64,000 bases of DNA from Candidatus Gottesmanbacteria bacterium RIFCSPLOWO2_01_FULL_43_11b. Its GTDB lineage: Bacteria > Patescibacteriota > Microgenomatia > UBA10105 > UBA927. Of the stretch, positions 323 through 50,566 are shown piece by piece (the first letter of the stretch is position 1; each line of letters begins with the position of its first letter). The position numbers and the translations under genes were made by a program. Under the pieces are notes generated by a model that had not been told where the DNA came from, made no database searches, and saw nothing but the letters and a program-made list of their open reading frames with translations. The stretch lies in NCBI GenBank assembly GCA_001780985.1, contig MFJV01000001.1, positions 300,049 to 364,048 of the forward strand, written 5' to 3'.

Positions 323-970
323 ATGCGTGAAAACTACTCTTTATTTCTTTTATTACCCTACTCACTTTTATCACTAAAGAGAACTCAAGTACATCATTTC
401 CCTCTTGACACCTTTATTAATAATGGTTTTACTGGATATATGGTTAATAAATTTCAAACGAATGCGTCTAATGTGCCGTATTATCTGAATAATCTGGAAA
501 TGTTATTTACCGATTTTTTACAGCAGGCGGGATCATCGGAAAAAACGCGGAAAAACTACAAAAGTGACGCGAATCATTTCTTAGGCTGGTTTATTTTCAA
601 ACTTGAATCCGCGGATCGTCTCCCTCATTCGCATATTGAATTCGTTCAGCGCATCACTCCGCGGTTCGTTGAGCAATATAAAACTTTTTTGCTAGTAAAC
701 AATATTCCAACAGCAACAATCAATCGCAGGCTCTCAACCATTCGAAGTTTTTTCAATTTCTGTCAAACACAAAAGTGGATTTCAGACAGCCCTGCTAAGA
801 ATCTTGCCACTGTTCGATCAAAAAAATTAGAACAGTCACGTTCCCAGGAAGACATACTTTCGTCATTTGCGCGGGATCTCAAAATGGAGGGTGCTTCAAG
901 GGCGACAATAAAAAATTACGTAAGCGACGTCCGGCTTTTTCTCCGTTGGAAAGATATTTATGCCGTTTAA
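323..970 (+). CDS. Protein of tandem phage-integrase-type N-terminal SAM-like (core-binding) repeats with no catalytic recombinase domain; probably joined by a +1 frame junction to the giant gene that follows
   Basis: 215-aa [29 protein letters not shown] ... [12 protein letters not shown] forms one complete core-binding-type helix bundle. A second N-terminal half follows ([28 protein letters not shown]). No R..HxxR..Y catalytic motifs. The stop overlaps the ATG of the 960 ORF, whose first 45 aa are a third copy of the same motif. Confidence 0.55.
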
Positions 971-3900
971 ACCTGCCAATCTCACCCAATACGAAGAACA
1001 CCTTGCTGACCAAGGATACTCTCCTGCAACAATTGCGCGAAAAAAAGCCTCTGTAGGTAAATTTCAACAGTGGGCTGATTCGCGGGAAACGATTACGATA
1101 CCGGCTGAAAACGAACACCCACGGAAAAGTCGCGCATGGATGTATGGAGTTTTGTTAGCACTTGGTGGTATTGGATTGCTAACCATGATCGTCATAGTAC
1201 TGTTGAATCAACAAAGCCGGGTAGCCCCAGCAATTACCAGCCGTGCAGTTGTTGTTGAACCAACACCTGGCACTCGGCCTACCCCGACTGCTACTCCTAC
1301 CCCAGAGGTAAGCACGGTTGCAAAATCTCAAGAGATCCCCTCATCTCAAGCATATACGATCAGCGGAGAGACTGTTACTATCACTACTTCCCCATTTAGC
1401 AACGGCGACATAACGCTCGCACCCGATGGTCAGGGACAGTTCCTCATTCGATCGAGTACAAGCACAGAGAATTCCGTAGATGTTCGCAATGCCAATTTAA
1501 CAACCGGTGCCCTTCTCTACGGGAATGTAGGTAACAGCAATCTTGGGTATGATTTCCTGCGCTTTACCAACGGCCCGGATGAAAAACTCCACTTCTCGGT
1601 CGATGCCTCCGGCAATACCTATATCGGAGGAAATGCAACGATTGAAAATATCCTGCTTGTCGATGAATTAAAGACTAAAGATGCCTCAGCCATACAGCTG
1701 GACAATGCCATCACGTTTAAAGATGCCGGTACGATATCAACAACCAATGGTAATTTGAATCTCCAACCCTCTGGAGTCGTGAATATTCCGGTAATTATCC
1801 AAAATCTCTCAACAAGTAACAGTGGGAGGGTGCAAATCAACGATGATTTACAAATCTATGGATCAGAATGGATTTCAGGGGGGTTAGATGTCAATGGTCG
1901 TACAATTCTCAACAGCAGCCTTCTCATTAAAAATGGTTATGGGCTGCCTGGGTTTGAATTTACTCTTGCCGGCGATGCGACAATTTCCGGAAGTCTTTCT
2001 CTTGCCCCGAACGTGCCGGGTTACGTTGGCACATGCGATTCAAGTAAAGCAGGACTGATCTATTATGATGGAGTTGTAAATATTCTGTACTATTGTAATG
2101 GAACAACATGGGTTTCTGCTGAAAGCGGTGTGGGCGGTCCCACCGGTGCGACTGGGGCGACTGGGGCAACGGGAGCCACCGGAGCGACAGGAACGGCTGG
2201 AGCTTCCGGCCCAACGGGTGCTACCGGAGCGACAGGCGGAGCTGGTCCGACTGGGAGCACCGGAGCAACGGGGGGTGCTGGTGCTTCTGGACCGACCGGG
2301 TCAACTGGTGCAACCGGTGGAGCCGGTATAGGTGGAGCAACGGGGAGCACAGGCTCTACGGGAACAGATGGACCAACCGGACCAACCGGGGCGACAGGGT
2401 CTGCTGGACCAACGGGAGCGACCGGAGCGACAGGAGATGGCGGTCCGACGGGATCCACGGGTGCAACCGGAGCAGATGGACCGACGGGTGCAACAGGCGC
2501 AACCGGAGCTACCGGTACTGCTGGAGCTTCTGGTCCAACCGGAGCGACCGGGCCAACAGGAGGTCCCGGTATTGGAGGGGCTACAGGAAGTACAGGTTCC
2601 ACAGGAGTTGAAGGGCCCACCGGAAGCACGGGGGCGACGGGAGCGAATGGACCCACAGGAAGTACCGGCCCCACTGGGTCAAATGGACCAACGGGGGCGA
2701 CGGGGGCCACGGGTGCAGCCGGAAGCGATGGGCCAACGGGAAGTACGGGGGCCACCGGAGGCGGGGGGCCAACCGGACCAACGGGAACAACCGGTGCTAA
2801 CGGACCAACCGGAAGTACAGGGCCGACGGGGGCCAATGGACCAACGGGAAGTACGGGGGCGACGGGAGCAACGGGAACGGTGGGAGCAAGTGGGCCGACC
2901 GGAAGTACAGGAGCAACAGGGGCTAGTGGGCCGACCGGAAGTACAGGAGCAACAGGAGCTAATGGACCGACGGGATCTACTGGTGCTACAGGCGCAACAG
3001 GGACCGCAGGTGCTTCCGGACCGACGGGAAGTACAGGTGCAACCGGTGGTAACGGACCCACTGGATCGACCGGACCGACGGGATCTGCCGGACCAACCGG
3101 AGCGACTGGTGCGACGGGGGCCACGGGCACTGCTGGTGCGAGTGGACCAACAGGGGCGACTGGGGCAACTGGTTCTAATGGACCAACGGGAAGCACAGGA
3201 ACTACCGGATCAAATGGTCCTACTGGAGCCACAGGCGCAACGGGAGCTACTGGTGCGGCAGGTGCTTCCGGTCCTACAGGAGCAACCGGGTCAACGGGAG
3301 GAGATGGTCCGACGGGAAGTACCGGTGCAACAGGAACAAATGGACCCACCGGTGCAACCGGAGCCACAGGCGCAACAGGTGCAACCGGCGCAAATGGGCC
3401 CACTGGGGCAACCGGAGCGACGGGCGCAACCGGAGCGACGGGAACCGCCGGCGCTTCCGGACCTACCGGCGCAACAGGAGCAACCGGCGCAACGGGAGCA
3501 ACCGGAGACAACGGTCCCACGGGAAGTACCGGCGCAACAGGTGCAACCGGAGGGGATGGTCCGACAGGTCCCACCGGGACAACGGGGGCTAATGGGCCGA
3601 CCGGTGCAACGGGTGCAACGGGTGCAACGGGTGCAAATGGGCCAACAGGATCGACAGGGGCAACTGGCGCAACAGGAACAGATGGGCCGACAGGATCAAC
3701 GGGTGCAACAGGAACGGGTGGCCTCGGTGGTGCAACGGGGGCAACGGGAGGAACAGGAGTTGCTGGTTCTTCCGGACCGACCGGGGCAACTGGCGCAACC
3801 GGGGGAACTGGCGCAACCGGGGTACAGGGACCGACAGGTACGACTGGTTCAACGGGAACAACGGGAGCAAACGGCCCAACTGGGATGACTGGGGCTACCG

Positions 3901-6900
3901 GCGAACGTGGTGCCGCGGGTGAAAATCTCTTTGATCAAACGAATAATCTTATTTACCCCTACCCTGTCGTCAATCGCAGTATTGCTTTGGGAAGCGACAT
4001 ATTTTCTCCCGCCGATGATCCGTCAACAACATCAACTGCGAGTGCCCTTATCATGCTCAATGGCGATAATGGACAGATCTGGGGAGCAGATACTACGATA
4101 GGAAAAAACATCCGGACCGACCTACGAGCACTTAGTAACGTCACCGATGTGTTCGTCTATGATACAAGCAAAGACTCCGACGCCGGATTATGGAGAAATG
4201 ATGATCGGGGCAAAGCAACAAGCTGGTACAACGAAACCATTGATAACCCGGCCGCCACCTGTGTCGTGGATACCGACGATCGCTGTGGCAACAGAGAGTT
4301 TCCAGCCAAAGCCATTATCGTCGTAACTACTACCAAAATGTATATATATGATGCATACGATAACACGCTGTGGATGGATTTCCGCAAAGGCGCGACCACG
4401 ATCGAGCAAATGATCGGGCCGACCGATAATTCCACAGGTTCCAGTGTCTGGGCGTTAAACGGCAAGATTTACTATGCAAATAACGGCTCGGTCGGAGGTC
4501 TCTATGTCATCGATCTTCTCAACGACCGTGCCTACAAATACGACGCCACTAATGATTACGTCGGCGACAAAACCGTGGGAACCAGAAATTCGACGGTCAC
4601 CTGGACGGCCGGACCATCATCACCCATCGTGAATGCAACGATCAATGATATCATGGCACGGGTCATCGGTGGAGACACATACGCTGTCGTAGGAACCGAT
4701 GCAGGTATGTCCGTCATTAACGAAACCGACCGCGCGGTCTTTGATTATGACGATGAGGTGGGAACGGCAGATAACGACTACAATAGCGTCTGGCTCGACC
4801 GTGATGGTAATCTCTGGGACCTCAACGAAACTGCGGGGCAGCTCGATAAATGGACAAACGTCATTGCTGACTCTGCCGATGAAAATCCCGGTAATCCGGA
4901 TACCGTCTGGGACGAATCCTCTACCCCGGCGCTTTTTGACAGCGCGCAAACGATAAACGTGGCACCTTCTGCCCTCACCGTCCGTGAGGGGACGAGTACG
5001 GTGGACGGAAAATCTCCGACCGTTTACGTCGGCCACAATGGCGGACTCACGGCGCTTTCTACCAAGGCAGATGATGAAACCAACGGCTCGGTCAAATATT
5101 ACACCAACTCATATATTACCGAAGAAATGATAGGAGATATCCGCGGCATGTGGCCTTTATACGGCAGTGGTTCCATTGCCGACGGAACCAACAATATCGA
5201 CGATGCCTCAGTCAAATCCGAAGAGCTCACCGCCAAAAATGCCAACGGCACAGGTCTTGCCTACGCCACAGGAGTACGGGGAACGGGAATAAGTTTTGAC
5301 GGAACCGACGATTATCTCTGTTCCGACACGAATGATGACGACACCTGCGACGACACAGCAAATCTTGAATTCGGCGCATCACCCACATTCTCCTACGGGA
5401 CATGGTTCAATGTTAATTCCTCCGGAGGGAATGAATGCGCCGTCAGTGATAAAAATGGGTGTGTAAACTCGACGGCCGGCTACTCCGTGTATAAGGATAC
5501 CACGGACAAGATTGTATGCCGCATCGCAGACGGAAGCAACGCCGCAACGGCCACAACCGTCGGGACACATGCCGACAGCCTTTGGCACCAGGTAACCTGT
5601 ACCGTGGATGGATCAAACATCCGAATCTACATCGATGGGATTCTTGACGCGACATCAAGTATTGCAACCGTGACTGGCTCAACCAACAACACATTACCAT
5701 TTATTATTGGGGGTCAGGGGTCACCAACCACCAATTTTTTCTCGGGATCTATTGACGATGTTTTCGTTACGGCGGAAGCTCTCACTCCGGGTCAGATCAG
5801 AAACCTATACCAAGTTGGCTACCGCGCTTCGCAAAACCATACAGCAGGACGAATTACAAATATCGGAGCGGATGATTATCAGCATCTTTTGGGAAATGCC
5901 TCCGGCGGCACCTCAACCAGTAGCCGTGTGTTTTCTGCCGCAGTCGATGATAGCAATCAATTTATTTATGCCGGAATCAACTCAAGCGGCGATAACACCG
6001 GTGGAGTGACGGTGCTTGGAATTGACAGCGACAGTGCTCTTGATCTTTATGACACAACGGCAAATACCAGTAAAGACGACGATATCGGTACGCAGTTTAA
6101 CGCCAGCGATGCGCTTGCGATATCTGTAGCTGGTGCTCCGTGCCCTGCGTACAACGGCGGCACGACCGCCTGCAACAATAGTGCCACCCTCGCAATCGCC
6201 GGAACTGACGATACGAACTATCGAGTCTGGATGGAGACGTCGGAAATATCACTGTATAACGCGCTTTCTCTTATCAGTAGTCCGTCACTCACGAAAAACA
6301 ATATGACCGTCAACAACATATTCACGATCTACAATACCTATAACAATCTGGATCAATCATCTACAGGAGAAACGATCCAAACCCCGGCGCTTTCCGTCGA
6401 CAGCAACGGGAACCTCGTCTACAACTATCTCGGCACATCAACAAGCGCAACAGCCATGGACTTCAACGATTCCGTACTCACTACAGGAACCATGCTTGAT
6501 CTAACTTCCACGACGCTCACGACGGGAGATGCGCTCAAAATTACCACAAACGCCCTCACGAGCGGCAATGCGCTCGATATTTCCTCAACGAGCACGGCCA
6601 TGACGGGCGATTTGGCGGCGATTACGCTTTCCGGAAGTAACGCTGCCAACACCGGCTCGCTTCTTTCTCTCACTAATAGTGGTACAGCTAATACCGGGGA
6701 GACTCTCTATATCAAACACTATGCTACCGGTACAAATAATCTCGCGATGCGCGTAGACGATGTAAGTAGCGATACGTCACCCTTTGTCATAGACGGCGCA
6801 GGCAACGTCGGCATCGGCCAGTCGGCGCCAGTCAGTCAACTTTATATTGGAAACAATGCCGACAGCTGGACCGATGCGTCCAACTCCCAGGTGACCATAG

Positions 6901-9900
6901 AAGGCGTTGATAATGAAACGACAGTCAAAGCGTTTTCGGTGAAAGATGAAAATGCAAACGAGTACTTCTTCCTTAGCTCCGTTGCCGGCTCTAACAACGG
7001 AATAGCATATTTCAAAGGCAATGTTGGCATTGGCGATACTGGTCCGGATTATCATCTGGAAATCAGCGATACCACCGATACTCCGGTTCTGGCCCTTTCT
7101 GATGATGATATCGCCCAGGGATTCACCACAGATGTAGCAGAGACAGACGTGTTTGCTCACCTTACCTCCCTCTCCACAACTGCAGGAGGAGTCCAGTTCA
7201 CTGCGCTTTCCGATACTGACGCTCAAGCCCTTTCCATCAAGGCCGGTATTGGATCTGCAACCCCTACGGATACGACGCCCGCGATCAAGTTTATCGGTGG
7301 TAAATTAAGTGGTACGACATTCGGCGATCTTGACGTCACCTCTGCAATCACGTCAACTACCGCAGAAACGGTCTTCCAAATTGCCAACAACAATGACACT
7401 GCGGGATTTACTATGTTGGGGAATGGAAATATAGCTATTGGTAATAATGTAAGCCCTTTGGGAAAACTGGTTATTACTTCAAATCCCTTAGGGTCCGACT
7501 ACACAACCGGCCACGCGGCACTCATCGTCGACCAATTTGAAACCCAGGATATTATCGCCGCATCCGCCTCTGGAGTACTTCGCTTCAAAGTAGAAAGCGA
7601 CGGAGATGTTGTTTCGCAACGGTTTATGGATTCGGCAGACAATACTTACCTCATAGATCCGGCGAACGCCAGCACGGCTCTTACCCTAGCAGGAAGTGCC
7701 GGAATCGGCGACACCACACCCGATTATCTTTTGGAATTATATGACGCAACCGCCACACCCGCGTTTGCTCTTTCCGATGATGATATCGGCCATGGGGTTA
7801 CTACCCTGGTCCAAACAGACGTCTTTGGGCATCTGTCCTCGGTCTCCTCGTCCGACGGGGGCCTACAAGTAACCGGACTGGCCGACGCTACGGGAATAGC
7901 GTTGGGGCTCAAAGGGGTTCAGTCTTCCAATCCGACAGACACAACACCTGCAATTTCACTCATCGGAACCAAAGCCAATGGCACGGGGGTTCAGGATTTG
8001 GATTCTGCAGAAACCGTGCTCCAAATAGCCAACAACGATAATACCGCAGCCCTGACAGTTCTAGGAAATGATTATGTCGGAATCGGGACAACCACCCCGT
8101 CAACCCCGCTTGAAGTTGCAATTAATAACGCCACCAATAACGACATTACCAATCTTTTAACCCTGACCCACACCACCTCCGGAACTGCCACAGGTGGCCT
8201 TGATGCTGTCCTTCTCCATATGGACGGAGATGATGCTTCAACGACTTTTACTGACGAATCAGGCAAAACATGGACAGCCAACGCCAATGCCCAGATTGAC
8301 ACGGCTCAAAGCAAGTTCGGCGGAGCATCGGGTTTATTTGACGGCACCGGTGATTACATTAACACCGCAGATCATGACGACTTTTATCTCGGCAGCAGAG
8401 ACTGGACCTTTGATTTCTGGATAAGACATGTATCAAATGCCACAGATGAATATATCTTTACTCAATATGCAGATGCCAACAATTATTTCTACATCCTGGC
8501 AAATGGAGGGGGAAATACGCTAGCTATCGTACAGGCAGATTCAAGCACAACCAGATGGTCATTCACAGCCCCGTGGAATCCGACAAACGCCACCTGGTAT
8601 CATGTCGCAATCGAAAGAGAAGGAAACACTCCAAGAATATTCATAGGCGGTGTAGCTCAAACTGTTACCGAGGTAACCACAATTGCCGGAAAAACGGCGG
8701 CTGACATTGCCGCAAGCCCAAGAATCGGGATAAACGGGGTGGGCAGCGCAGGTCTTAACGGCTGGCTGGATGATTTCAGGTTTACCAACGGCACTGCCCG
8801 CTGGAGCAGCAACTTCACCCCGCCGGCAAGCGCAGTCACCTATCAAGGGGGAACAGTCACCGGAATAGGGACAGGTCTTCTTTTCAGGACGGAAGATTCG
8901 GCCGGCAATACGGAAAACGCCGGCAGGATATATTCTGCTCTAAATAAAACCACCGACGGAGAGGAGACGTCCCAAATGACTTTTGAGACAAGAACCGGCG
9001 GAGCGGCTCTAACTCCCGCGATGAGACTTAACGGAATCGGGAATCTAACCCTAAAAGGTTCGCTAATTCAATCCAGCACACCGGATATTGCCGAAAATGT
9101 GATTGTGACTGACCCGACGGTTGAGGCGGGAGATATCGTGGTAATTGATCCGTCCTATCAACCGCCGGAGGGGGCCAATATTTATAACCGCTTTGCCGCC
9201 AAAAAGGCCGAGACACCCTATTCGCAGCAGCTTCTGGGAGTAATTTCGCAGGACCCGGGAATTATTCTTAATGCCCCTGAAGACGCGGTTGATACCGGCG
9301 AGCAAAGTGCTGCCAACGAGCGGCCTTTGGCTATTGCCGGCCGTGTTCCGGTCAGGGTTTCCACAATTAACGGCAATATTAAAAATGGCGACGCCATTAC
9401 CGCCTCGATGATTCCCGGAGTCGGGATGAAGGCAACCGGCGAAGGCAATATCGTAGGCCGCGCTCTGCAGGCATTTAGCTGTGAATCTCCCGATACTCCC
9501 TGCGAGGGCAAAATCCTTGTCCTTGTGTCCACTTCCTGGCATAAACCCAAAATTTTTGAAGAGGGCGGGATAATAACCACGATCATCCAGGACGCCCAAA
9601 CTTTGGTGTATCAGGTGGTGCAAACGACGGCCGAGGGCATTGACCGGATCGCCGAGGAGATTGGAGTTTACGCCAATTTAATCGCGGCAAACATTAACGC
9701 GGGACTGATTGAAACAAAAGAACTCAAAACCGATACTCTCTCTCCCATTGCTTCGGATAGCGCAGGGATCGCCGTACGCCTAGGGCCGGAACAAACGTTT
9801 ACCATCACCGACAGAGAAGGCACTCCGTCTGCACGCTTTGACAACTTGGGGAACGCTACATTCTCTGGTGAACTAACTGCGAGTGAAGCAAGTATTTCCG

Positions 9901-10658
9901 GCAATTTATATGCTGACCGTGTTCAGACTTCGTTTGGAGATTTAGATGCTCGGCTGATTGGTCTCGAAGCGTCAATTTCAGCTATTGGTTACATTGCTCC
10001 ACCTGATGAGTCAACAAGTTTAGCAACCAATGTTCCTGACCTCACCGTCGCCAATAATCTAACCGTCTACGGACAGACGAGTTTAGGCCCCGTAAGTGTT
10101 GCCGGATCTCTCCTTGTTGATGGCGTCATACAGTTGTCGCAGCAGGGAATCGACTTTCTCGGTGACACGTTAGATTTTCTCAGCGGCGTTCTTCGCCTAA
10201 GTGCAAACAGAATTGAAGTCGGCGCGCCCATTGCTCCCATTCCAGGCCAAGATCTCACGATAGATCTCGAAAAACCGTCATCCGGCTTCGGCACGCTTCT
10301 CGTCAAAGGAAATGTTTACACTGAGGGCAATATCGCTGCCCGAAGTGCCACTGTCTCGGGCGAACTCACCACCCGAAAGCTCATTATAGCTAACGATCAA
10401 GCCTCACCAAGTGCGGAACTATCTGAAATTTCAAGTAACGCGACAGTCGGAGTCGGCACAATACAAGCTGAATCACTCGAAGTAACTATTCCCACTACTG
10501 CAGTAACAGATTCATCATACATCTATATCACACCGACAACTTCTACAAATAACCAAGTACTATATGTAAAGTACAAGATCGCCGGAAGCGGATTCGTTGT
10601 CGGATTTGATCAAATTGTTCCTGCTGATGTGGAGTTTAACTGGTGGGTGATTAATTAA
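960..10658 (+). CDS. Giant membrane-anchored surface protein (3232 aa) with N-terminal SAM-like segment, signal-anchor TM helix, Thr/Pro linker, collagen-like Gly-X-Y region, two LamG/ConA-like lectin domains and tail-fibre-like repeat modules
   Basis: Uninterrupted 9.7-kb ORF. TM helix [23 protein letters not shown] at ~1138-1210. [10 protein letters not shown] linker. About 200 GXY triplets. LamG motifs ([22 protein letters not shown] ... [21 protein letters not shown]; [10 protein letters not shown] ... [20 protein letters not shown] ... [15 protein letters not shown]). Repeated NVGIG(D/Q)(T/S)xP modules. Confidence 0.85.
2130..3920 (+). repeat. Collagen-like Gly-X-Y triplet repeat (about 200 triplets, mostly GPTG(A/S)TGATG) inside the giant gene, highly repetitive at DNA level
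   Basis: Continuous G-x-y periodicity from ...[14 protein letters not shown] to ...[14 protein letters not shown]. Reverse-strand Pro/Val/Ala-rich ORF 2090..3574 and +-strand ORFs 2098..2331 and 2332..3888 are frame shadows of this repeat. Confidence 0.85.
6780..8110 (+). repeat. Three tandem, diverged ~100-150-aa tail-fibre-like modules within the giant protein
   Basis: Module starts [17 protein letters not shown]..., [48 protein letters not shown]..., [47 protein letters not shown].... Each ends in ...QIANN(N/D)(D/N)TA(G/A)(F/L)T(M/V)LGN. Confidence 0.5.
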
Positions 10659-10705
10659 CTTTACAACTTACAACTTTACAACTTATAACTTGATAATTTA
10701 CAACT
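10657..10705 (+). repeat. Imperfect heptamer array (T)TTACAAC x ~6 directly upstream of the four-helix-bundle gene start
   Basis: aactttacaacttacaactttacaacttataacttgataatttacaact, ending 5 nt before ATG 10711. Confidence 0.8.
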
Positions 10706-10710
10706 AGGTA

Positions 10711-11070
10711 ATGAAAAAATTTCGTTTTCTCGAGTGGAAAGTTTACAAAGACGCGAAGAATCTATTCGCTAGACTCCTTACGATTGTTAAAAGACTTCCA
10801 AAAGAATATCGTTTTGAATTGGGAAGTCAGATTATTAGATCGGGACTTTCTGTTGTGCTCAATATAGCCGAGGGAAGTGGGAAAAATTCAGATAAGGAAC
10901 TTAACCGTTATTTCGATATCTCCCTTGGGTCATTACATGAAGTTTTGGCATGCATTGATGTACTGAAAGACAATAAGCTTATAACAGAAAAAGAGTTTAA
11001 TGATATTTTTACTTTAGTAAATGAAATTTCCAACCAATTAGGAGGCTTCAAGAAAGTTGTTAAGTTGTAA
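10711..11070 (+). CDS. Four-helix-bundle protein (TIGR02436 / 23S rRNA intervening-sequence protein family; DGR Avd-like fold)
   Basis: 119 aa. Family-typical LxxA..L...VV.L...I.R.......LNIAEGSG....KE...F..ISLGSL.E....I.V. The last four residues are encoded by the downstream repeat array. Confidence 0.8.
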   Translation: MKKFRFLEWKVYKDAKNLFARLLTIVKRLPKEYRFELGSQIIRSGLSVVLNIAEGSGKNSDKELNRYFDISLGSLHEVLACIDVLKDNKLITEKEFNDIFTLVNEISNQLGGFKKVVKL

Positions 11071-11096
11071 GTTGTAAGTTGTAAGTTGTAAGTTGC
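11056..11096 (+). repeat. Heptamer array (GTTGTAA) x ~5.5, the inverted complement of the array at 10657..10705
   Basis: gttgttaagttgtaagttgtaagttgtaagttgtaagttgc. Overlaps the last codons and stop of 10711..11070 and lies 5 nt from the stop of the pilin gene on the minus strand. Confidence 0.8.
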
Positions 11097-11100
11097 GTAG

Positions 11101-11580
11101 TTAATCCGCACACAATTTATATTCCCCGGGGGTAGGGGTGGGATATCCGCAGCGGGCTTGGCTCGCTCCGATATCTGCGTCTGAGGCGTTCTCAAGAACA
11201 ACTTTTGCCAGAAAATCATCTGTATCAGTCGGTTTAAGAGGATGCCGGTTATACAAATACTCGACCGGTAGATTTTTCATGTACACGGTCTCTCCGCCCG
11301 ACGGCCCTGCTTGAAAAGGACCTGTCTGGGAACAGGCTGACGTCCCCGTAGTCCCACAGCCATTGATGAGAGTGCCTGTGCCGCTCGGGTAACTATTAAA
11401 GTCATTGTAATAGAGCCGAAGAGCACTTTTGAGCTCCCGCAGTTCCGCTTTTCTCTTGGCATCTTTAGCCCGCTGTCTGGCTCCAAGAAAATTTGGAAGT
11501 GCTACACCCACGAGGGCGGCAATAATCGTTATGACAACCAGAAGTTCGATAAGTGAAAAACCTTTCTTACTATTTTTCAT
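11101..11580 (-). CDS. Type IV pilin / pseudopilin-like protein with class III (prepilin peptidase) signal peptide
   Basis: MKNSKKG|FSLIELLVVITIIAALVGVALP. G-1/F+1/E+5 motif and hydrophobic N-terminal helix. Confidence 0.75.
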   Translation of the reverse strand: MKNSKKGFSLIELLVVITIIAALVGVALPNFLGARQRAKDAKRKAELRELKSALRLYYNDFNSYPSGTGTLINGCGTTGTSACSQTGPFQAGPSGGETVYMKNLPVEYLYNRHPLKPTDTDDFLAKVVLENASDADIGASQARCGYPTPTPGEYKLCAD

Positions 11581-12122
11581 GGATCGTTTATGAGTGTTCT
11601 TCCTGTATTTGGTGTTGTATTGGTACTACTCCTTCCATAATTACACAATTTTGTCCCGCAGTACAGGTTTTGGTACGCTTGGGGCGTACTGCCGCTTTTT
11701 TGTACATCTGCATCATCGGTATTTTCCAATCGTGCATAGAGCTGGTAGGAATTATTTCCACCACCGACATCATAATAGTACGAGTGAATTGCAATTGGAT
11801 CTTCGGGAAGTTCTACCATGTAGATCGTGTTGTTTTGATCTTTAAATTCCTCTCCCCATTCGCATACTGTTGCCCCGGCTGACCCGCACGCAGTAATCTT
11901 ACCTCCGCTATTATCATTCGGGTATTTACCGGTGTCGTTAAAATAAAGCTCGAGAGCAGAAGTAACATTTTTTATATCCGTTTTCCTTCGGCTATCACGG
12001 CTTTTGGTTTGGGATGATCGGAATGTCCCAAGTCCGAGGGTAATGAGTATCGCCAAAATCAGAATGACGACGATTAACTCTATGAGTGTAAATCCGCGCG
12101 ATTTCAAAAGTTTATTATTCAT
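11577..12122 (-). CDS. Type IV pilin-like protein (start trimmed to the internal Met; the long upstream extension is judged spurious)
   Basis: MNNKLLKSRG|FTLIELIVVILILAILITLGL prepilin motif. ATGA overlap with the downstream pilin gene. The upstream 96 codons of the track ORF (11577..12410) are Ala/Arg-rich and overlap the neighbouring gene. Confidence 0.7.
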   Translation of the reverse strand: MNNKLLKSRGFTLIELIVVILILAILITLGLGTFRSSQTKSRDSRRKTDIKNVTSALELYFNDTGKYPNDNSGGKITACGSAGATVCEWGEEFKDQNNTIYMVELPEDPIAIHSYYYDVGGGNNSYQLYARLENTDDADVQKSGSTPQAYQNLYCGTKLCNYGRSSTNTTPNTGRTLINDP

Positions 12123-12156
12123 AGTTGTTAGTTGTTCGTTGTTTAGTTGTCGGTTA
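12123..12156 (+). repeat. GTTGT-type heptamer array (agttgtt agttgtt cgttgtt tagttgt cggttat) in the 34-nt gap between two pilin genes, directly upstream of start 12122 on the minus strand
   Basis: Same motif family as the arrays at 10657..10705 and 11056..11096. Confidence 0.6.
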
Positions 12157-12882
12157 TTATGGGCACCAGTTGTCTGGATTCCTGCAAGCCTCGACACAGG
12201 TAGCGACATCGTCAAAAGACGCCGGACAGCCACTCTGCTGCGGGTTAGTGTACGTATTGCAGTCACCTCCCGGCGTGCAAGCCAAACTCCCATAATACCC
12301 ACTCGCCGGCGTTGGCGTTGGGCCGCCGCCGCCATCACCACCACCGTCACCACCCGGTGTGGGCGTTGGCGTTGGGCCGCCGCCGCCATCACCACCACCG
12401 CCAGGAACAAACCCTTCTGCTACAACCGAAACACCTACCGAATTACAAAAATTGTATCCCTCCCCCCACCCACATCCCTCGACGGGGTCACAGCCAAGCG
12501 AGGTAATGGCAGGATCGCTCGTGTCTTTGAGGGAAGCGCAGGCGCGGTACCCCAAACAGGGATTTGCTTCCGGCACGTATAAATAGGGCTGTTTCGTAGA
12601 GGGGTCACAAGGAATTTTATCAAGGTATGGAACCAGTGTTGCTGCGCCGCAACTATCGAGAATTCCAGAGTCGGGGTAACACCCCTTGTCATTGTAGTAC
12701 TCTTCAAATGCAGTACGTATTGCATTAAGGTCGCTTTTTCGCTTCGCATCATAGCCCCTATCAATTTGTCGTTTCCAGTTAAAAAGGGCAACGACGGTAA
12801 ACAGAACCAGGATAATCGCAATTGCGATCAGGAGTTCTGCCATCGTCCACCCCTGCCTGCCGGCAGGCTGGCCTTCTTTCAT
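12157..12882 (-). CDS. Type IV pilin-like protein with Gly/Asp and Pro/Thr low-complexity repeats (start trimmed to Met16 of the track ORF 12157..12927)
   Basis: MKEGQPAGRQG|WTMAELLIAIAIILVLFTVVALF with E+5. Internal GGGGDGGGGPTPTPTPGGDGGGDGGGGPTPTP. Confidence 0.65.
   Translation of the reverse strand: MKEGQPAGRQGWTMAELLIAIAIILVLFTVVALFNWKRQIDRGYDAKRKSDLNAIRTAFEEYYNDKGCYPDSGILDSCGAATLVPYLDKIPCDPSTKQPYLYVPEANPCLGYRACASLKDTSDPAITSLGCDPVEGCGWGEGYNFCNSVGVSVVAEGFVPGGGGDGGGGPTPTPTPGGDGGGDGGGGPTPTPASGYYGSLACTPGGDCNTYTNPQQSGCPASFDDVATCVEACRNPDNWCP
12308..12402 (+). repeat. Direct tandem duplication (~54 nt unit, 1.75 copies) inside the pilin-like gene, encoding GGGG(D)GGGGPTPTPTP
   Basis: ggcgttggcgttgggccgccgccgccatcaccaccaccg occurs twice in tandem. 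Confidence 0.7.
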
Positions 12883-13204
12883 ATAGTTTTTAGTATGACA
12901 TGGATATTGACTCTGTGCAAATATCAATACTACTATAGTATATACAATGCTGCCTCAGAAACGCCTGCTACTTCTGCTATCAGTTATTGTCGTTCTCCTC
13001 TACGTTGGACTCAATGTCGCAATCTATCTCTGAGGCACAACGATCTCTCAAAGCAAATTCGGGAAAGCAGCCACGAATCTTTCCATCATCAAAGAACAAA
13101 AAAAACCACAATCAACACAAACCACTAGGGAAATCCCCTTCACCCCCCAACAAGTTGTCCTCCCAAGTGGCTCTCAAACATACCGTTTTTCCCACGGAAA
13201 AGAC

Positions 13205-13480
13205 GTGATAGGCCCCAAACCTGAAAGTATCACCATCGATCCCCTTACCCCGGAGAAAAACCAGACGCAGACTGTAATCGTTGCAATCAAAGATCCGGTT
13301 GAAAGTGCTGTTGTCGAACTTACCACTGACAATCAAAAAACTCAGCACGATCTTAAAAATAATAACGGAAACTGGGAGGGGGTTTGGACAGTGGACGATA
13401 ATTATGACAACACGAACGCCATGCGGTTAATTTTGAAAAACAAAAGCTATACCTATGATCAAACGTTATACTTTCGATGA
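13205..13480 (+). CDS. Hypothetical small protein (possible beta-sandwich fragment) with a GTG start
   Basis: 91-aa ORF in an otherwise gene-poor ~650-nt stretch. No recognisable family, and it could be a gene remnant. Confidence 0.25.
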   Translation: MIGPKPESITIDPLTPEKNQTQTVIVAIKDPVESAVVELTTDNQKTQHDLKNNNGNWEGVWTVDDNYDNTNAMRLILKNKSYTYDQTLYFR

Positions 13481-13539
13481 GAATTAGGGATTAGGGGGAT
13501 AGTATTTAGTATATAGGGATTAGCATAGAGGAAAACAAT

Positions 13540-13803
13540 ATGCAAAATGAAGATAACGGCAAAATTACAAGCTTTACCCAGCTTATTGCGTGGCAAAGAG
13601 GACACCAGTTAGTACTCAATATCTATAATATGGTGAAGAAATTTCCATCGGAGGAGCGATACGGATTATCGGATCAAATGAGGCGTTGTGCGGTGTCTAT
13701 TACATCGAATCTCGCCGAAGGATTTTCCCGACAGGGCAAAAAAGAAAAAATTCAGTTTTATTTTACTTCACGAGGTTCACTCACACTTCGACGGCACCAT
13801 TGA
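13540..13803 (+). CDS. Four-helix-bundle protein (TIGR02436 family), 3'-truncated relative to the family norm and overlapping the next ORF
   Basis: 87 aa. LIAWQRGHQLVLNIYNMVKKFPSEERYGLSDQMRRCAVSITSNLAEGFSRQGKKEKIQFYFTSRGSL matches helices 1-3 of the family, but the ORF stops about 30-40 aa early (...TLRRHH*). The downstream LamG ORF begins inside it in another frame. Confidence 0.65.
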   Translation: MQNEDNGKITSFTQLIAWQRGHQLVLNIYNMVKKFPSEERYGLSDQMRRCAVSITSNLAEGFSRQGKKEKIQFYFTSRGSLTLRRHH

Positions 13804-15635
13804 CGAGCCTTTCTTTGTTAGAAAATCCCTTGCCTATGAAGAGGCTGCCGAGGCCTACCGCGCCGGGCGCGACCACTACCTAAATAAAACCATTTCCTCA
13901 ACCGATTTATCCGGTAAACAAACGCTACCCTTCTACGTCGCCGCAGACCGGCCGGGAACGTATCTCGAGGCCACCGTCGGCGAGAACGCCTTTGCCAACT
14001 ACCAGCCTGATTCCAACACGGTTGGCTTATGGCACCTTGCCGAGCAATCCGGTTCGGGGGAATACATCAAAGATAGTTCCGGTAATTCCAATCATGGAAC
14101 TCCAACAGGAACTACTTTTACCCAAGGTAAAATTGGCAAAGGGAGAAATTTTGCGGGATCTTCAAGCCACTGGATCGGAATTAATTCTCCAACTTCCGGG
14201 ATTACTGCTGGCGGAGTAAAAACCGTTAGCGCGTGGATAAATACATCGTTGGCTACAGACGAAGTTATATTTAACGCATATGATGGAACGAATGGTTACC
14301 AAATTTATGTAGGCGGAGGGGCTTTTTACAGTTGGAGTAATGGTGGCGCAACTCTAAGTTCTTCTACTGTAGTTAATGATGGAAAATGGCACTATGTAGT
14401 AGCTGTTTTGGGATGGAACAGACGCTTATTTATATGTTGATGGAGTCCAGAGAAACTCGGGAGCCAGAACAATTTCGACAAGCACAACACCTCAAGCCCA
14501 AATAGGTACACAATGTACAGGATCTTGCCCCACCGGCCAAGCGGTTAATTTTAACGGTACTATTGATGAAGTCAGAGTTGACAATACCGCCCGCACTGCA
14601 GATGAAATCCGGCAGGCGTATGAGGTCGGGAAACGAACCCATCCGGTGACGATTGATTTTGGAGCAAAACTCGATAGTGGCGATGATTTAAGCGATCTCT
14701 CATTTACGATTGATGCCACCTATTACGGACTTAACAGTAAAGGCAGTAATTTGTATAAAGGCGATAAAATCATAGTCCGGGAAAACGTCGACGGTACCGA
14801 ATATATCTCCCAGGGAACGGTAACGGCGGTGACGGCCTCAACCGGTGCAGTAACTGTTGCTGCCTGGGATTCAGGATCCACCGTCCCCTCCGGCGGATTT
14901 ACCGTAAACGCATCAGTATTCAAATGGCAGCGGGAATACTTTGATCCCACCGGATCGCTGTCTACCCACCGCGATGCAATAACTAATCTCACATTCAGGT
15001 TAACCGATGGCGCCGAAGGCCGGACCATCTGGCTTGATGATCTCAAAAGCAGCGGCGGGTATCTTACCACACCAGAAGGATCAACGATCGCTTCTTCTTT
15101 AGACAATCAGTATTTCCAGTACCGAATTGTCGAGATGACCAATGACACAGCGGTTTCGGCAAGCCTAACTTCGTTAACGGGTGGCTATGGTTCCTTGGGT
15201 ATACCGATTTCGGGTAATTATATTTATACCACTACTTCGGCTAACACGAGTGATTTTATAACACGCTACGTTGACATCAACGATCCCACTACCCCCCGTT
15301 ATGTTTTGGGGGTAGACAACGGCGCGGACGAGGACGCCGACAATACGGCCAATTTTGAAGTCCAAAGCGGTGCTTTAACCATAAATGCAAGTGACACTTT
15401 AGTGGCGGGGACTATGACTCTGACCGGAGGCTCGGTGGCCATTGCCAACGGCGGCCAGATCGTCATCGGGCAAAAGTTATGGACGGTCGACCAGGATGTC
15501 GACGGCTGGTCGTTGAACCGAAGGTTGGGGTACGGTAGTAAACCAACCAACGGACGGCGTAAAAATTTGATGGCCAGCTTTGGCGCAAATGACTGCGACG
15601 ATACGGTAAACAGTTCAACCAACACCTGTCAGTGA
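13688..15635 (+). pseudogene. LamG/ConA-like lectin-domain protein with C-terminal DxDxDG...CDD metal-binding-type motif, interrupted by a 1-nt frameshift at a GGG run (~14409-14411); the track splits it into ORFs 13688..14440 and 14646..15635
   Basis: Frame A carries GLWHLAEQSGSGEYIKDSSGNSNHGT...KWHYVVAVLG then a stop. Frame B opens at 14403 and continues DGTDAYLYVDGVQRN...FNGTIDEVRVDNTARTADEIRQAYEVG, the canonical end of a LamG_3 domain. Deleting one G restores ...VAVLDGTDAYLYVDGV. No internal Met in the first segment except M1, which lies inside the upstream 4HB gene. Confidence 0.5.
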
Positions 15636-15655
15636 AGTGATGTTATTGAAAAATC

Positions 15656-15814
15656 TCCTGGGCGGTTGACCAGGACGCTGACGGCCACTCTTTAGACCGC
15701 CGGCTCTGGTACGGTGACCAGCCAACAAACGGCAGACGTAAAAACTTGATGACCAGCTTTGCCGTTGCCGACTGCAACGACACGATCTATGATACCTCCA
15801 ACCTCTGCCAGTAG
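15656..15814 (+). repeat. Promoterless, start-less, diverged (~70% identical) duplicate of the last ~50 codons of the LamG gene, including the DQD(A/V)DG(H/W)S...CNDT motif and its own stop
   Basis: Translation AVDQDADGHSLDRRLWYGDQPTNGRRKNLMTSFAVADCNDTIYDTSNLCQ* compares with the gene end TVDQDVDGWSLNRRLGYGSKPTNGRRKNLMASFGANDCDDTVNSSTNTCQ*. It lies in a different frame, with a stop 7 codons upstream and no ATG. Confidence 0.7.
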
Positions 15815-15842
15815 TTCAGGTATGTGATACAATAAATGTACT

Positions 15843-16052
15843 ATGCCGCTTGTTTGGGATTATCCGAAAGCTAAACTCACGAGATCCCGCCGCGGTTCCG
15901 TACTACTTCTTGAGCGATTGATTAATTTTGGACCGGGAAAAGGAGAAAAAATTCACCTGCGGAAAGTAAAAGAACACTGGGGGGCCCTCCGCTTGTTTCC
16001 GAACAAACGGCGGCTCATGGAGCTTTTCTTATGGGGAAAGCCACAATCTTAA
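15843..16052 (+). CDS. Small hypothetical protein directly upstream of and overlapping an AbiEii toxin gene; possibly a truncated or remnant AbiEi-type antitoxin
   Basis: 69 aa. Overlaps 16031 ORF by 22 nt. No confident family match from sequence alone. Confidence 0.3.
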   Translation: MPLVWDYPKAKLTRSRRGSVLLLERLINFGPGKGEKIHLRKVKEHWGALRLFPNKRRLMELFLWGKPQS

Positions 16053-16693
16053 CACCGAGACAAACTGAGCTCATACGGGCACTTTGCGCAGACACATTTT
16101 TCACCGACACGTTTTATTTTACCGGAGGAACTGCGCTTTCAGAGGTGTATCTCAAGCATCGCAAAAGCGAAGATCTGGATTTTTTTTCCGCCCGCACGTA
16201 TGATCCCCAACGAATTCTCCACGCGTTAACGCGGTGGTCCAAAACACAAAGATTTTCTATCAAAACGGACTTTGTCGAGCCTACGCATATCTACGTGCTG
16301 ACATACCCCGATGGCCACGCTGTCAAAGTGGACTTTGCTACATATCCCTACCCAAGCCTCGATACGCCAAGCCGGTATCGGGATACCTTGTCCGTGGACA
16401 GCCTGTTTGATATTGCCGTCAACAAACTCGTAACCATTACCCAACGCACGGAGGTGAAAGATTTTGTAGATCTTTATTTTCTATTCCGGCAGTTTACATT
16501 TTGGACCCTCCGGGACGGCGTTAAAACCAAATTTAATATCGAGATAGATCCATATGGAGTTGCCTCAAATTTCATGGCTGTAGAAGACTTTGATTTCCTT
16601 CCGATCATGCATACCCCATTGACCCTACAGGCGCTCAAAATGTTTTTCCGGACCAAGGCAAAAGATCTGGGGAAAAAGAGCATCGCCCCTTGA
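16031..16693 (+). CDS. abiEii: AbiEii / AbiGii-family nucleotidyltransferase toxin (type IV TA system, DUF1814)
   Basis: FYFTGGTALSEVYLKHRKSEDLDFFS matches the GGTAL...RxSxDLDF nucleotidyltransferase signature of the family. Confidence 0.75.
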   Translation: MGKATILTPRQTELIRALCADTFFTDTFYFTGGTALSEVYLKHRKSEDLDFFSARTYDPQRILHALTRWSKTQRFSIKTDFVEPTHIYVLTYPDGHAVKVDFATYPYPSLDTPSRYRDTLSVDSLFDIAVNKLVTITQRTEVKDFVDLYFLFRQFTFWTLRDGVKTKFNIEIDPYGVASNFMAVEDFDFLPIMHTPLTLQALKMFFRTKAKDLGKKSIAP

Positions 16694-16726
16694 CATACAA
16701 AGAATGTTATATTATCCTGTACATAT

Positions 16727-17263
16727 ATGTACAAGATAGATATACTCCTGAAGCAAAAAAATCGTTTATTTCATACCAGGGACCTCGGCCTTTTGTGGCA
16801 GATACAAAATACAAATACACTCTACACCCAAATCAAACGCTACACAGCCAAAGGCATACTTATTCCGGTCCAAAAAGGACTGTATACCACCGTCCCCGTA
16901 ACCCAACTGCATCCGTTTGCGCTTGGCGCGGCTGCCCTGCACCGTTATTGCTATATAAGTTGTGAGTATGTGTTGGGTCAGGCAGGCATTATATTCCAGG
17001 CCGGTCAATCCGTCACGTTTGTTTCATCTGTTTCACGTAAATTCACGCTTGGTGGTCATGAGTTTTTTGTAAGACAGCTGGCAGATCAATTTCTCTTTAA
17101 TGATGCCGGTATTCAAAAAGATGACGACGGCATATCTATCGCCTCCCCCCAGCGCGCAGTTGCCGATCTTTTATACTTTAATCCTCACGCTCATTTTGAT
17201 AACCGACGCGCATTAGATTGGACAAATGTGCGCGACATACAAAAGAAAGTGGGGTATCTATGA
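16727..17263 (+). CDS. abiEi: AbiEi-family antitoxin / transcriptional regulator (type IV TA system)
   Basis: N-terminal LFHTRDLGLLWQIQNTNTLYTQIKRYTAKGILIPVQKGLYT matches the AbiEi_4 winged-helix pattern (F...DL......N....L.RL...G.L..I.RGLY). Its stop overlaps the next gene as ATGA. Confidence 0.75.
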   Translation: MYKIDILLKQKNRLFHTRDLGLLWQIQNTNTLYTQIKRYTAKGILIPVQKGLYTTVPVTQLHPFALGAAALHRYCYISCEYVLGQAGIIFQAGQSVTFVSSVSRKFTLGGHEFFVRQLADQFLFNDAGIQKDDDGISIASPQRAVADLLYFNPHAHFDNRRALDWTNVRDIQKKVGYL

Positions 17264-18009
17264 TACTTCCGTATCCCAAAGACGCGCTCCATAAAGCCAT
17301 GCTCTACCGGCTCCTCATTGGTCTGTTGGATGCCAAAGATGTGGCAAGAGAGATATTTTTCAAAGGCGGTACCTGTGCTGCTATGCTTGAGTGGCTGGAT
17401 CGGTTCTCCATCGATTTGGACTTTGATCTTTCCCGAAATGCAGACAGGCCCAAGCTGAAACGGCTCCTGAAACGTATATTTAACGCCAATGGATTTCGTG
17501 TTGCCGAAGAAGCCAAAAACGAGCTCTATTTTATTCTGAAATACCAAGCACCACCGGGTACACGAAATAACTTGAAGCTGAGCATTATTGATCTTCCGGT
17601 TCGCGCGAATGTGTACCAGCCACAGTATCTTTCGGATATCGCGCGTTTCGCTGTGTGCCAAACCGTCGAAACCATGTTTGCCAATAAACTCATCGCTGTC
17701 ACCGACCGGTTTAAGAAATATCACACCATCGCTGGAAGAGACATTTATGATATACACTATTTTTTTACCCAAGGATATGGATATAATCAGGAAGTTATTA
17801 CGGAGAGGACGGGAGTGTCGCCAGCCGTATATCTACGTGAGCTTAGCGAATTTATCCGTCAAAAAATAACGGAAAGAATTATTAGTGAGGACCTGAGTTA
17901 CCTCCTGCCGCCTACAAAATTTCAAGTGGCGCGGCGCACACTAAAATCAGAAGTCCTTATCTTTCTTCAGTCCGCAAAATCCCACGCGCCGTTGATACAA
18001 CAAGCCTAA
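17260..18009 (+). CDS. abiEii: AbiEii-family nucleotidyltransferase toxin (start at the internal Met overlapping the AbiEi stop)
   Basis: FFKGGTCAAMLEWLDRFSIDLDFD signature. ATGA overlap with 16727..17263. Confidence 0.75.
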   Translation: MILPYPKDALHKAMLYRLLIGLLDAKDVAREIFFKGGTCAAMLEWLDRFSIDLDFDLSRNADRPKLKRLLKRIFNANGFRVAEEAKNELYFILKYQAPPGTRNNLKLSIIDLPVRANVYQPQYLSDIARFAVCQTVETMFANKLIAVTDRFKKYHTIAGRDIYDIHYFFTQGYGYNQEVITERTGVSPAVYLRELSEFIRQKITERIISEDLSYLLPPTKFQVARRTLKSEVLIFLQSAKSHAPLIQQA

Positions 18010-50111: not shown

Positions 50112-50317
50112 TTCTCTTATGCTACACTAGACTCTGGTGAAACAACAAATACTCCTCTCAATCGGCATATTCGTTCTTCTGGTTCTTACGACATTTGTGA
50201 TTGTCGAATGGTCCCGCCCGCGTGTTGGCAATATCATTCTTCCCGCCGGCGGCACCTACCTCGGCCCCTCTCCAAAACCATAAATTTCTCCTTGAAATGT
50301 GGTATACTTATATTCGT

Positions 50318-50566
50318 ATGAGCCGAACATATCGAACAATTATTACTAAGGATGATGCTGGTTATCATGGGTGGGTGCCCGCACTGCCGGGTTGTCACAC
50401 GTATGGTAAAACAATCGAAGATACACAAAAAAATCTGAAGGAAGCAATTGAAGGTTGGCTTTTAACACGCGAGGCTCGCCATTGGCCAATACCAGAGGAT
50501 ACTCTGATAGAAACTTTACAAACAGTAACTCTTCCGCCTGGATCCTCTCTTTCGACGTATGCCTAA
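50318..50566 (+). CDS. hicB: HicB-family antitoxin (UPF0150)
   Basis: MSRTYRTIITKDDAGYHGWVPALPGCHTYGKTIEDTQKNLKEAIEGWL. Start trimmed to Met40 of the track ORF 50201..50566. Overlaps hicA by 8 nt. Confidence 0.8.
   Translation: MSRTYRTIITKDDAGYHGWVPALPGCHTYGKTIEDTQKNLKEAIEGWLLTREARHWPIPEDTLIETLQTVTLPPGSSLSTYA

Follow-up and report, generated by a model that had tools for sequence, protein, structure and literature searches.

Genes and features of the locus

The window analysed here, a 64-kb stretch of Candidatus Gottesmanbacteria DNA, carries two genes of the four-helix-bundle (4HB) family PF05635, which were named copy 1 (10711–11070) and copy 2 (13540–13803). The element under study, at 13540–15635, consists of copy 2 and a LamG-type open reading frame (ORF) that overlaps its 3′ end. 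Both 4HB genes scored about threefold above the Pfam gathering cut-off of PF05635 (33.8 bits). A PF05635 ORF together with the tandem heptamer arrays beside it is called a cassette below, and the arrays are called its 5′ and 3′ arms. The features of the two cassettes and of the DNA around copy 2 are as follows.

10654..10705, plus strand: 5′ arm of cassette 1, an ACAACTT-type heptamer array of about 6.5 units (Tandem Repeats Finder, TRF, period 7 at 10657–10705; inverted-repeat pairs with 11054–11105)
10711..11070, plus strand: 4HB1, an intact PF05635 gene of 119 aa (97.2 bits, profile positions 4–105 of 106)
11054..11105, plus strand: 3′ arm of cassette 1, (AAGTTGT)n, 5.9 units (TRF, 97% matches, array 11054–11095)
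12947..13480, plus strand: small gene whose product has a transmembrane (TM) segment and a beta-rich domain; a TGA at 13031–13033 interrupts the frame (frame translation)
13483..13539, plus strand: 5′ arm of cassette 2, a degenerate heptamer array of ATTAGGG and TAGTATn units (period-7 score 17 of 28, like arrays of the copy-2 clade)
13540..13803, plus strand: 4HB2, a 3′-truncated PF05635 gene of 87 aa (90.6 bits, profile positions 2–69 of 106)
13784..13787, plus strand: deletion junction between the interior of 4HB2 and the interior of a LamG gene (4HB homology to 13785, LamG-family homology, FDGTIDE, from 13787)
13787..15635, plus strand: LamG-family pseudogene, 5′-truncated and frameshifted (Laminin_G_3, 37.5 bits against a cut-off of 27.6, on the 3′ half)
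15650..15814, plus strand: orphan fragment lacking a start codon, the final 54 codons from the tail of a paralogous gene (69% nucleotide identity, 107/154, to 15480–15635)

Copy 1 is an intact cassette

Cassette 1 occupies the spacer between a gene for a giant surface protein and a pilin operon. Its 5′ arm begins at the stop codon of the giant gene and ends 5 nt short of the 4HB1 start codon, and its 3′ arm covers the last codons of 4HB1 and extends to the stop codon of the convergent pilin gene, the limits of the inverted repeat (10654 and 11105) including the stop codons of both adjoining genes. The arms at 10661–10684 and 11054–11077 were 96% complementary. When the RNA of 10645–11112 was folded, the arms paired around the ORF in a predicted stem of about 45 bp (−129.9 kcal/mol, z = −5.98), and this pairing was present in both the minimum-free-energy and the centroid folds.

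As a protein, 4HB1 is an ordinary member of PF05635. It was 100% identical to a recorded Candidatus Gottesmanbacteria protein, and sequence matches identified 2GSC (E = 3e-6) and 2RLD (E = 3e-4), with five chains in each deposit, as relatives of known structure. The conserved RxxxSxxxNxxE motif given for homologs of Xcc0516 (PMC3936711) was found by alignment in both copies, as R43-S47-N51-E54 in 4HB1 and R49-S53-N57-E60 in 4HB2.

Copy 2 is truncated and fused to LamG DNA

A full-length four-helix domain was found in 4HB1 and not in 4HB2. In an alignment with 24 relatives, the homology of 4HB2 covered codons 1–82, to T82 (nt 13785), beyond which the relatives, 118–132 aa in length, read on as ELQNQLL. 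About 42–47 residues are absent from the C-terminus of 4HB2, and its last five codons and stop codon are fused LamG DNA read out of frame. The preliminary description, which was made from the sequence, had the gene ending 30–40 aa early; the truncation stands, and its extent is larger than that. Complementary termini enclosing the ORF, as in the intervening sequences (IVSs) of rRNA genes, were found for copy 1 and are lacking in copy 2, for which no complementary 3′ arm was detected anywhere in 13800–16200. The flank complementarity of 4HB2 was 7, the level of control ORFs. An exact look-up of the 87-aa product of 4HB2 returned no record.

The ORF after copy 2 opens at GTG 13688, and the stretch before 13787 showed no LamG homology, the frame being merely open into 4HB2. 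The overlap between the two genes had been described as 115 nt, with the only Met of the LamG ORF placed inside 4HB2; an overlap does exist, with a GTG as the start and a length of 116 nt, and it is an accident of an open frame, without function. From 13787 the frame reads FDGTIDEPFFVRK...AYRAGRDHYLNKTISSTDLSGKQTLPFYVAADRPGTYL (FDGTIDE...), the sequence with which a preceding LamG domain closes at its C-terminus. The same end-of-LamG motif was located at aa 295–470 in homologs of 860–1030 aa, and the pseudogene is short of at least 300–470 N-terminal codons. A 1-nt frameshift was also found in the run TTTTGGG (14405–14411), the frame changing between 14410 and 14412. The region 13688–15635 is not one gene, since the frameshift divides it into ORFs at 13688–14440 and 14403–15635. 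With one base removed at the frameshift, the sequence reads ...HYVVAVLDGTDAYLYVDG..., a normal LamG core, and the repaired translation of 616 aa matched LamG proteins of 500–1060 aa. A purpose-built LamG hidden Markov model (HMM) matched the two halves of the pseudogene with E values of 6e-34 and 6e-26, respectively.

Decay was also seen on both sides of this pair. The small gene upstream (12947–13480) is probably a pseudogene. An alternative genetic code as the explanation of its in-frame TGA was ruled out, because ORFs of 3232 and 2983 aa in the window are intact under table 11. Downstream, the orphan fragment at 15650–15814 looks like what is left of a tandem paralog after its deletion; it encodes a Cys/Asp-rich C-terminal tail in another frame than that of the pseudogene.

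The window derives from a metagenome assembly, the frameshift sits in a homopolymer run, and short contigs from other assemblies stop inside heptamer arrays, all of which would fit an origin of the truncation, the overlap and the frameshift in chimeras or indel errors of assembly. However, an ORF of 250 aa that runs across the junction as far as the stop codon created by the frameshift was recorded on seven contigs from several samples and assemblers, and window positions 12371–16072 matched a Logan contig at 100% identity and three ENA assemblies at 99.9% identity, all of them gap-free. Since two ORFs as long as 3232 and 2983 aa run through the window uninterrupted, the rate of indel errors in it is negligible. 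Neither the truncation nor the frameshift is an assembly error, and we regard an artefactual origin as extremely improbable.

A related contig retains the ancestral arrangement

The nearest relative of copy 2, P0241 (80% identity), is encoded on contig L172, the only contig that was syntenic with the copy 2 locus. The gene order of L172 mirrors that of the window, with a small gene, a 4HB cassette and a LamG-family gene in succession. The small gene of L172 is intact (203 aa) and showed 40% identity over 175 columns to 12947–13480, with an alignment score of 287 versus 33 ± 6 for shuffled sequences, and the alignment crosses the stop codon of the window gene. The 4HB gene of L172 is full length (128 aa) and has arrays on both sides. 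The protein encoded downstream, at least 600 aa long, has a TM segment and a Gly-rich region and is homologous to the LamG family (P0140, P0156, P0151); at the end of the contig it reads ...DQSTVGLWHMNE, the opening motif of a LamG domain. At this orthologous locus the 4HB cassette thus lies directly upstream of a LamG-family gene, as in the window.

The DNA similarity between the window and L172 runs to TCACTCAC (13777–13784) and then ends. Since the similarity stops at 13784, one deletion would account for the loss of both the cassette's 3′ third and the beginning of the LamG gene; assuming the architecture of L172, we infer a deletion of at least about 2.5 kb. The reading of 13540–15635 as a deletion scar is well supported.

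A gene for a Y1 transposase (IS200/IS605- or RAYT-type) is located at L172:348-1037, 1.2 kb upstream of the intact cassette. Its presence may be a coincidence, or it may be relevant to a DNA-level role of the hairpin-forming arrays.

Related cassettes share inverted heptamer arms

We surveyed 160 loci (L012–L171), 80 from genomes with copy-1 relatives and 80 from metagenomes with copy-2 relatives; they are not phylogenetically independent of one another, and their gene calls were simple ORF calls. About 95% of the surveyed copies were intact, and 150 intact copies were measured. In most copies the start codon was preceded by a heptamer array whose reverse complement followed the stop codon; bracketed PF05635 genes of this kind are seen, for example, at L031:3520-4060 and L045:3933-4559. 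The median flank complementarity was 15.5 in the copy-1 set and 14.25 in the copy-2 set, compared with 7.0 and 7.5 for control ORFs (p = 5e-34 and 2e-27, respectively). A period-7 signal was present on both flanks of 62 and 57% of the copies, respectively, versus 2 and 7% of the controls. The top upstream heptamer was the reverse complement of the top downstream heptamer, with at most one mismatch, in 45% of the copy-1 set and 53% of the copy-2 set, versus 10 and 13% of cross-locus pairs. The sets contained 56 and 46 distinct heptamer units, respectively, and, as the unit varies by locus, the two arms co-vary. Neighbouring genes were on the same strand in 86 and 89% of cases (background, 73 and 77%). 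The median gaps to the upstream and downstream genes were 45 and 37 nt in the copy-1 set and 34 and 25 nt in the copy-2 set, which leaves no room for a separate promoter.

The cassettes were found in widely different surroundings. Three relatives of copy 1 lie inside the 5′ part of 16S rRNA genes (L066, L070 and L077), four cassettes lie between tRNA genes (L035, L040, L045 and L048), and others lie between co-oriented housekeeping genes, such as pilB and pilC, ATP synthase subunits, groES and groEL, thyA and folA, and secDF. The commonest neighbours were pilus and secretion genes (T2SSE, 12; T2SSF, 9; PrgI, 7; T4SS_pilin, 9), and more than 90% of the cassettes had unrelated neighbours, which in each set belonged to about 110 families. 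In 12 of the 160 loci, at least two copies that diverged from each other lay within 20 kb; a pair separated by 2.5 kb, like that of the window, is accordingly not unusual. Copies within one locus or one metagenome-assembled genome (MAG) were only 29–67% identical, which gives no support to recent intragenomic proliferation. That about 95% of the copies are intact, with 60–80% identity across phyla, argues that the 4HB protein is under selection.

Pairing with LamG genes is local

As the preliminary description stated, both 4HB genes of the window adjoin LamG genes, 10711 lying just 3′ of the giant protein gene and 13540 just 5′ of the LamG ORF. Its further claim that such pairing is recurrent did not extend to the family. 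LamG genes occupied 5 of 292 neighbour slots overall. In the copy-1 set they filled 0 of 152 neighbour slots, compared with 8 of 960 other genes, and in the copy-2 set 5 of 140, compared with 7 of 435 other genes (Fisher p = 0.18). A Pfam census of the 140 neighbours in the copy-2 set gave four for Laminin_G_3, below T4SS_pilin (9), ThyA (6) and DHFR (5).

A functional tie between the cassettes and surface, pilus or LamG genes would provide another explanation of the adjacency, which would then be selected, for example because the stem or the 4HB protein controls the expression or mRNA stability of the neighbour. All LamG ORFs of the copy-2 clade lie within 3 kb of a cassette (10 loci, versus 0 beyond that distance; raw binomial p = 6e-4), and pilus and secretion genes, the most frequent neighbours in the survey, form the same setting in the window. 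On L101 (1-6409), a 6.4-kb metagenome contig, a pair of LamG genes flanks two divergent 4HB cassettes (56% identity), a layout like that of the window. However, the raw LamG enrichment is mostly due to short contigs and long genes. It was marginal once these were controlled: a null of random placement within each locus gave p = 0.066 for the copy-2 set at 1 kb, 0.049 for both sets at 3 kb and 0.36 for both sets at 1 kb. The gene-level counts, the absence of LamG from the copy-1 slots and the predominance of unrelated neighbours also speak against a functional tie, and the counts are not independent, as related genomes may share ancestral insertions. In addition, the LamG neighbours in other loci were only 25–30% identical, being orthologs neither of the window pseudogene nor of one another. 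We consider a selected functional tie improbable, although a weak preference for pilus and surface-protein neighbourhoods is possible. The pairing is real at the orthologous locus of the window and L172, where it is inherited synteny, and it is not a property of the family.

The locus is not a diversity-generating retroelement

Diversity-generating retroelements (DGRs) diversify ligand-binding surface proteins. Avd is a DGR protein, and the two window copies touch LamG genes, an adjacency kept at L172; the 4HB protein might accordingly be an Avd-like accessory of a DGR that targets LamG surface proteins, one without a local reverse transcriptase (RT) or one that has decayed. The relationship of TIGR02436 proteins to Avd that had been pointed out holds: PF05635 proteins are homologous relatives of DGR Avd (PMC10053308), and the bAvd profile (PF22296) gave weak matches to the two copies. 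These scores, 35.3 and 21.9 bits, were both under the cut-off of 40, while PF05635 was matched at about three times its own cut-off. The four-helix-bundle fold of Avd (bAvd, PDB 4DWL) is homologous to that of the 4HB proteins and the size is similar; the window differs in having no RT, template repeat (TR) or variable repeat (VR), and the contexts of PF05635 genes are unrelated to DGRs.

The absence of an RT that had been noted was borne out, no RVT family match being obtained in any ORF of at least 120 aa in the 64-kb window. No TR/VR pair was present among the direct repeats of the window, the long ones of which comprise only collagen repeats, a pair in the glycosyltransferase region and a 42-nt pilin repeat. 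The local near-repeat of 15480–15635 versus 15650–15811, in the tail of the pseudogene and the orphan fragment, was 69% identical with 47 mismatches; all ten observed substitution types occurred among them, and the pattern was not adenine-specific. RVT_1 was outside the 25 most frequent neighbour families in both sets of related loci (290 neighbours), and like cassettes occur in rRNA genes, in tRNA arrays and between housekeeping genes. None of the DGR features that could be tested in the window was found, and 13540–15635 is an ordinary decayed locus, not a DGR. An Avd-like role for the 4HB genes is very improbable. The earlier suggestion of an RT-less association or a decayed element therefore holds as to the decay; its link to DGRs fell with the absence of an RT and of a TR/VR pair and the sub-threshold bAvd match.

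Origin of the locus and relation to known systems

It is quite probable that the two copies are IVS-type repeat-flanked cassettes and that copy 2 and the adjacent LamG gene were cut by a single deletion and then decayed. Both 4HB genes would be copies of a small promoter-less cassette, in which a PF05635 ORF is placed between a heptamer array and its reverse complement. Copy 2 would formerly have stood, as at L172, upstream of a surface-protein gene with a TM segment, a Gly-rich region and LamG. The deletion would have stripped 4HB2 of its final ~45 codons and its 3′ array, and the LamG gene of its 5′ part, leaving an out-of-frame fusion at 13785/13787. Later decay would have added the frameshift at 14405–14411 and the nonsense codon in the upstream neighbour and would have reduced a second paralog to a tail fragment.

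By analogy with rRNA IVSs, an intact cassette may be transcribed by read-through from its host gene, and its two arrays may pair into a long stem. RNase III would then cut the stem, separating the flanking host RNAs and releasing the 4HB message, as suggested by homologous rRNA IVSs, in which cleavage is experimental. Read-through and RNA processing are favoured here because of this analogy, the co-orientation of the cassettes with their neighbours and their tight packing. The 4HB protein probably binds nucleic acid as an oligomer in the service of the element. A promoter and terminator scan of 10400–14000 gave none above the shuffled expectation and none before either 4HB gene; this result is weak, because promoters of the candidate phyla radiation (CPR) were not modelled.

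Several observations weigh against this account. L172 stops before its LamG domain is complete, its small gene is only 40% identical to that of the window, and the orthology of the downstream gene was deduced from family membership and gene order. Among the arm mismatches of the surveyed cassettes there was no excess of G-U over A-C (134 versus 116 and 77 versus 100), so that selection for pairing in the sense RNA is not demonstrated, and about a quarter of the aligned arm positions were not Watson-Crick pairs. Furthermore, the raw density of LamG ORFs around copy-2 relatives was 7.1, 1.8 and 0 per 100 kb at distances of 0–1, 1–3 and 3–10 kb, respectively, and a weak local excess of LamG near cassettes of this clade is possible.

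As regards the mechanism of the cassette only, the arrays might have their role as DNA, serving as terminal repeats or hairpins in transposition or recombination by a transposase supplied in trans or by the 4HB protein. The lack of asymmetry between G-U and A-C mismatches fits such a role, as does the co-variation of the arms at each locus, as if both ends were copied or converted together (concerted evolution). The very different contexts of the cassettes across phyla and the Y1 transposase gene near the L172 cassette point in the same direction, and older proposals, quoted in PMC4990558, regarded IVSs as transposition remnants. However, a transposase is absent from the cassette itself, the divergence of copies within a genome or locus gives no sign of recent proliferation, and an element that lives at the transcript level would be expected to show such strong co-orientation with its neighbours and to leave no space for a promoter. 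Experimental RNase III cleavage is, moreover, known for homologous rRNA IVSs (PMC4990558). A DNA-level role is conceivable, if unlikely, and we retain the processing of read-through transcripts as the favoured mechanism of the cassette.

The closest known system is the rRNA IVS of Leptospira, Coxiella and Brucella 23S rRNA genes (S23p or 23S_rRNA_IVP), which shares with the window cassettes the PF05635 family, the position of the ORF within stem-forming terminal inverted repeats, tandem heptamers of variable copy number right before the start codon, and the decay of copies by deletion. In Coxiella, the 23S rRNA IVS has a 28-bp terminal stem and a variable number of tandem GACAGAT heptamers before the S23p ORF, RNase III cleaves at the first repeat, and a 176-bp deletion is present in the IVS of strain AuQ01 (PMC4990558). 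The relatives of copy 1 within 16S rRNA genes are a further likeness, and ORFs for IVS proteins (IVP) have been reported within CPR rRNA insertions (PMC11270868). The window copies differ in that they lie between protein-coding genes and in that both arms of the cassette are made of heptamer arrays. An Rfam search of 10000–16500 with E values up to 1 gave no match, and the rRNA location of an IVS was thus not found for these copies.

The arrays also resemble the heptamer systems of Xanthomonas (GGGAATC), Beggiatoaceae (TAACTGA) and cyanobacteria (STRR-type), which consist of tandem 7-nt intergenic units that often end by a start codon. In Xanthomonas, GGGAATC arrays form 70–75 convergent inverted pairs near genes such as groES and pilU (PMC4692102, PMC4679880). 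The window arrays differ from these in that they bracket a conserved ORF and in that the unit differs between loci; by term search, PF05635 or IVS genes were not mentioned in the Xanthomonas and Beggiatoa heptamer papers (PMC4692102, PMC4679880). A PF05635 gene is also located between cmr3 and cmr2 in CRISPR-Cas loci, which prompted guilt-by-association proposals (PMC3936711). Like the cassettes described here, it is wedged between co-oriented genes of unrelated systems, and the pairing with LamG looks similar; no flanking arrays were described there (PMC3936711), and the neighbours here are surface-protein genes.

A tentative generalization, which we think rather unlikely to hold in full, is that PF05635 genes form one widespread class of promoter-less, operon-embedded selfish cassettes, at home in rRNA, in tRNA arrays and in well-transcribed operons, that are excised from the host transcript at the array stem and whose oligomeric protein recognises its own arrays. 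Avd would then be a domesticated relative, and the CRISPR, DGR and LamG associations would be by-products of promiscuous insertion. In the searchable literature, no description of the general inverted-heptamer architecture and its range of contexts was found, which is not proof of novelty.

Genes around the two cassettes

Over its first 18 kb the window is a region of surface-protein and accessory genes, beyond which comes a glycan-synthesis cluster. The gene order of this region is an integrase N-terminal fragment, the collagen/LamG giant gene, copy 1, three pilin-like genes on the opposite strand, the small secreted-protein gene, copy 2, the LamG ORF and two AbiEii toxin modules. Its further features are as follows.

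960..10658, plus strand: giant surface-protein gene of 3232 aa, next to cassette 1 on its upstream side (Pfam Collagen, 216.8 bits; Laminin_G_3, 103.3 bits)
11101..12882, minus strand: three pilin-like genes (11101–11580, 11577–12122 and 12157–12882; N_methyl and T2SSG matches for the first two)
12122..12150, minus strand: solitary heptamer array adjoining the ATG of the second pilin gene (TRF period 7, 4 copies)
16031..18009, plus strand: two AbiEii-type toxin genes (16031–16693 and 17218–18009) and small partner ORFs (PF08843, 76.6 and 62.2 bits, respectively)

In the giant protein, the purpose-built LamG HMM located two LamG domains, at aa 1393–1628 and 2406–2617. The giant gene contains, at 2000–3900, about 1.9 kb of GC-rich (64%) collagen-like Gly-X-Y repeats with a 9-nt period, which yield long antisense and alternate-frame ORFs (2090–3574 on the minus strand and 2332–3888 on the plus strand). 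Upstream of it, a 215-aa ORF at 323–970 has, of a tyrosine integrase, just the SAM-like N-terminal domain, and it stops at the start of the giant gene. At L161, L166 and L168, in the copy-2 clade, the cassette adjoins similar integrase N-terminal SAM-like ORFs, as if inserted within or beside them.

The three pilin-like genes fill the space between cassettes 1 and 2, and the pilin-like N-terminus of the third (12157–12882) was judged from its sequence. The solitary array at 12122–12150 reads, in minus-strand units, CGACAAC TAAACAAC GAACAAC TAACAAC and has no inverted partner; this unit family is common to the 5′ arms of copy-1-clade cassettes. It resembles the heptamer systems described above and could be the one arm remaining from a lost cassette or an independent repeat close to a start codon, as are the TAACTGA arrays of Beggiatoa.

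The AbiEii toxin genes with their small upstream partner ORFs (15843–18009) lie directly after the LamG remnant, and a HicB/HicA pair is located at 50201–50786; these modules mark an accessory-island context. On the minus strand at 55035–63986, the window encodes a multidomain protein of 2983 aa with LytR_cpsA_psr, beta-lactamase-like, GGDEF and methyltransferase domains.

Implications

The specific finding at 13540–15635 is ordinary genome decay. For annotation, the 87-aa and 250-aa ORFs are to be flagged as pseudogene fragments. A false lead is also removed, in that an Avd-like gene beside a LamG gene is here not a cryptic or RT-less DGR and the overlap of the two genes is a deletion scar, and PF05635 neighbours should not be taken as functional partners. 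The survey, which covers the CPR and several other phyla, ties the unexplained ORF family of rRNA IVSs to a single cassette architecture. From this architecture follows a testable hypothesis, namely that RNase III would process mRNA-embedded stems and that the 4HB protein would bind the arrays.

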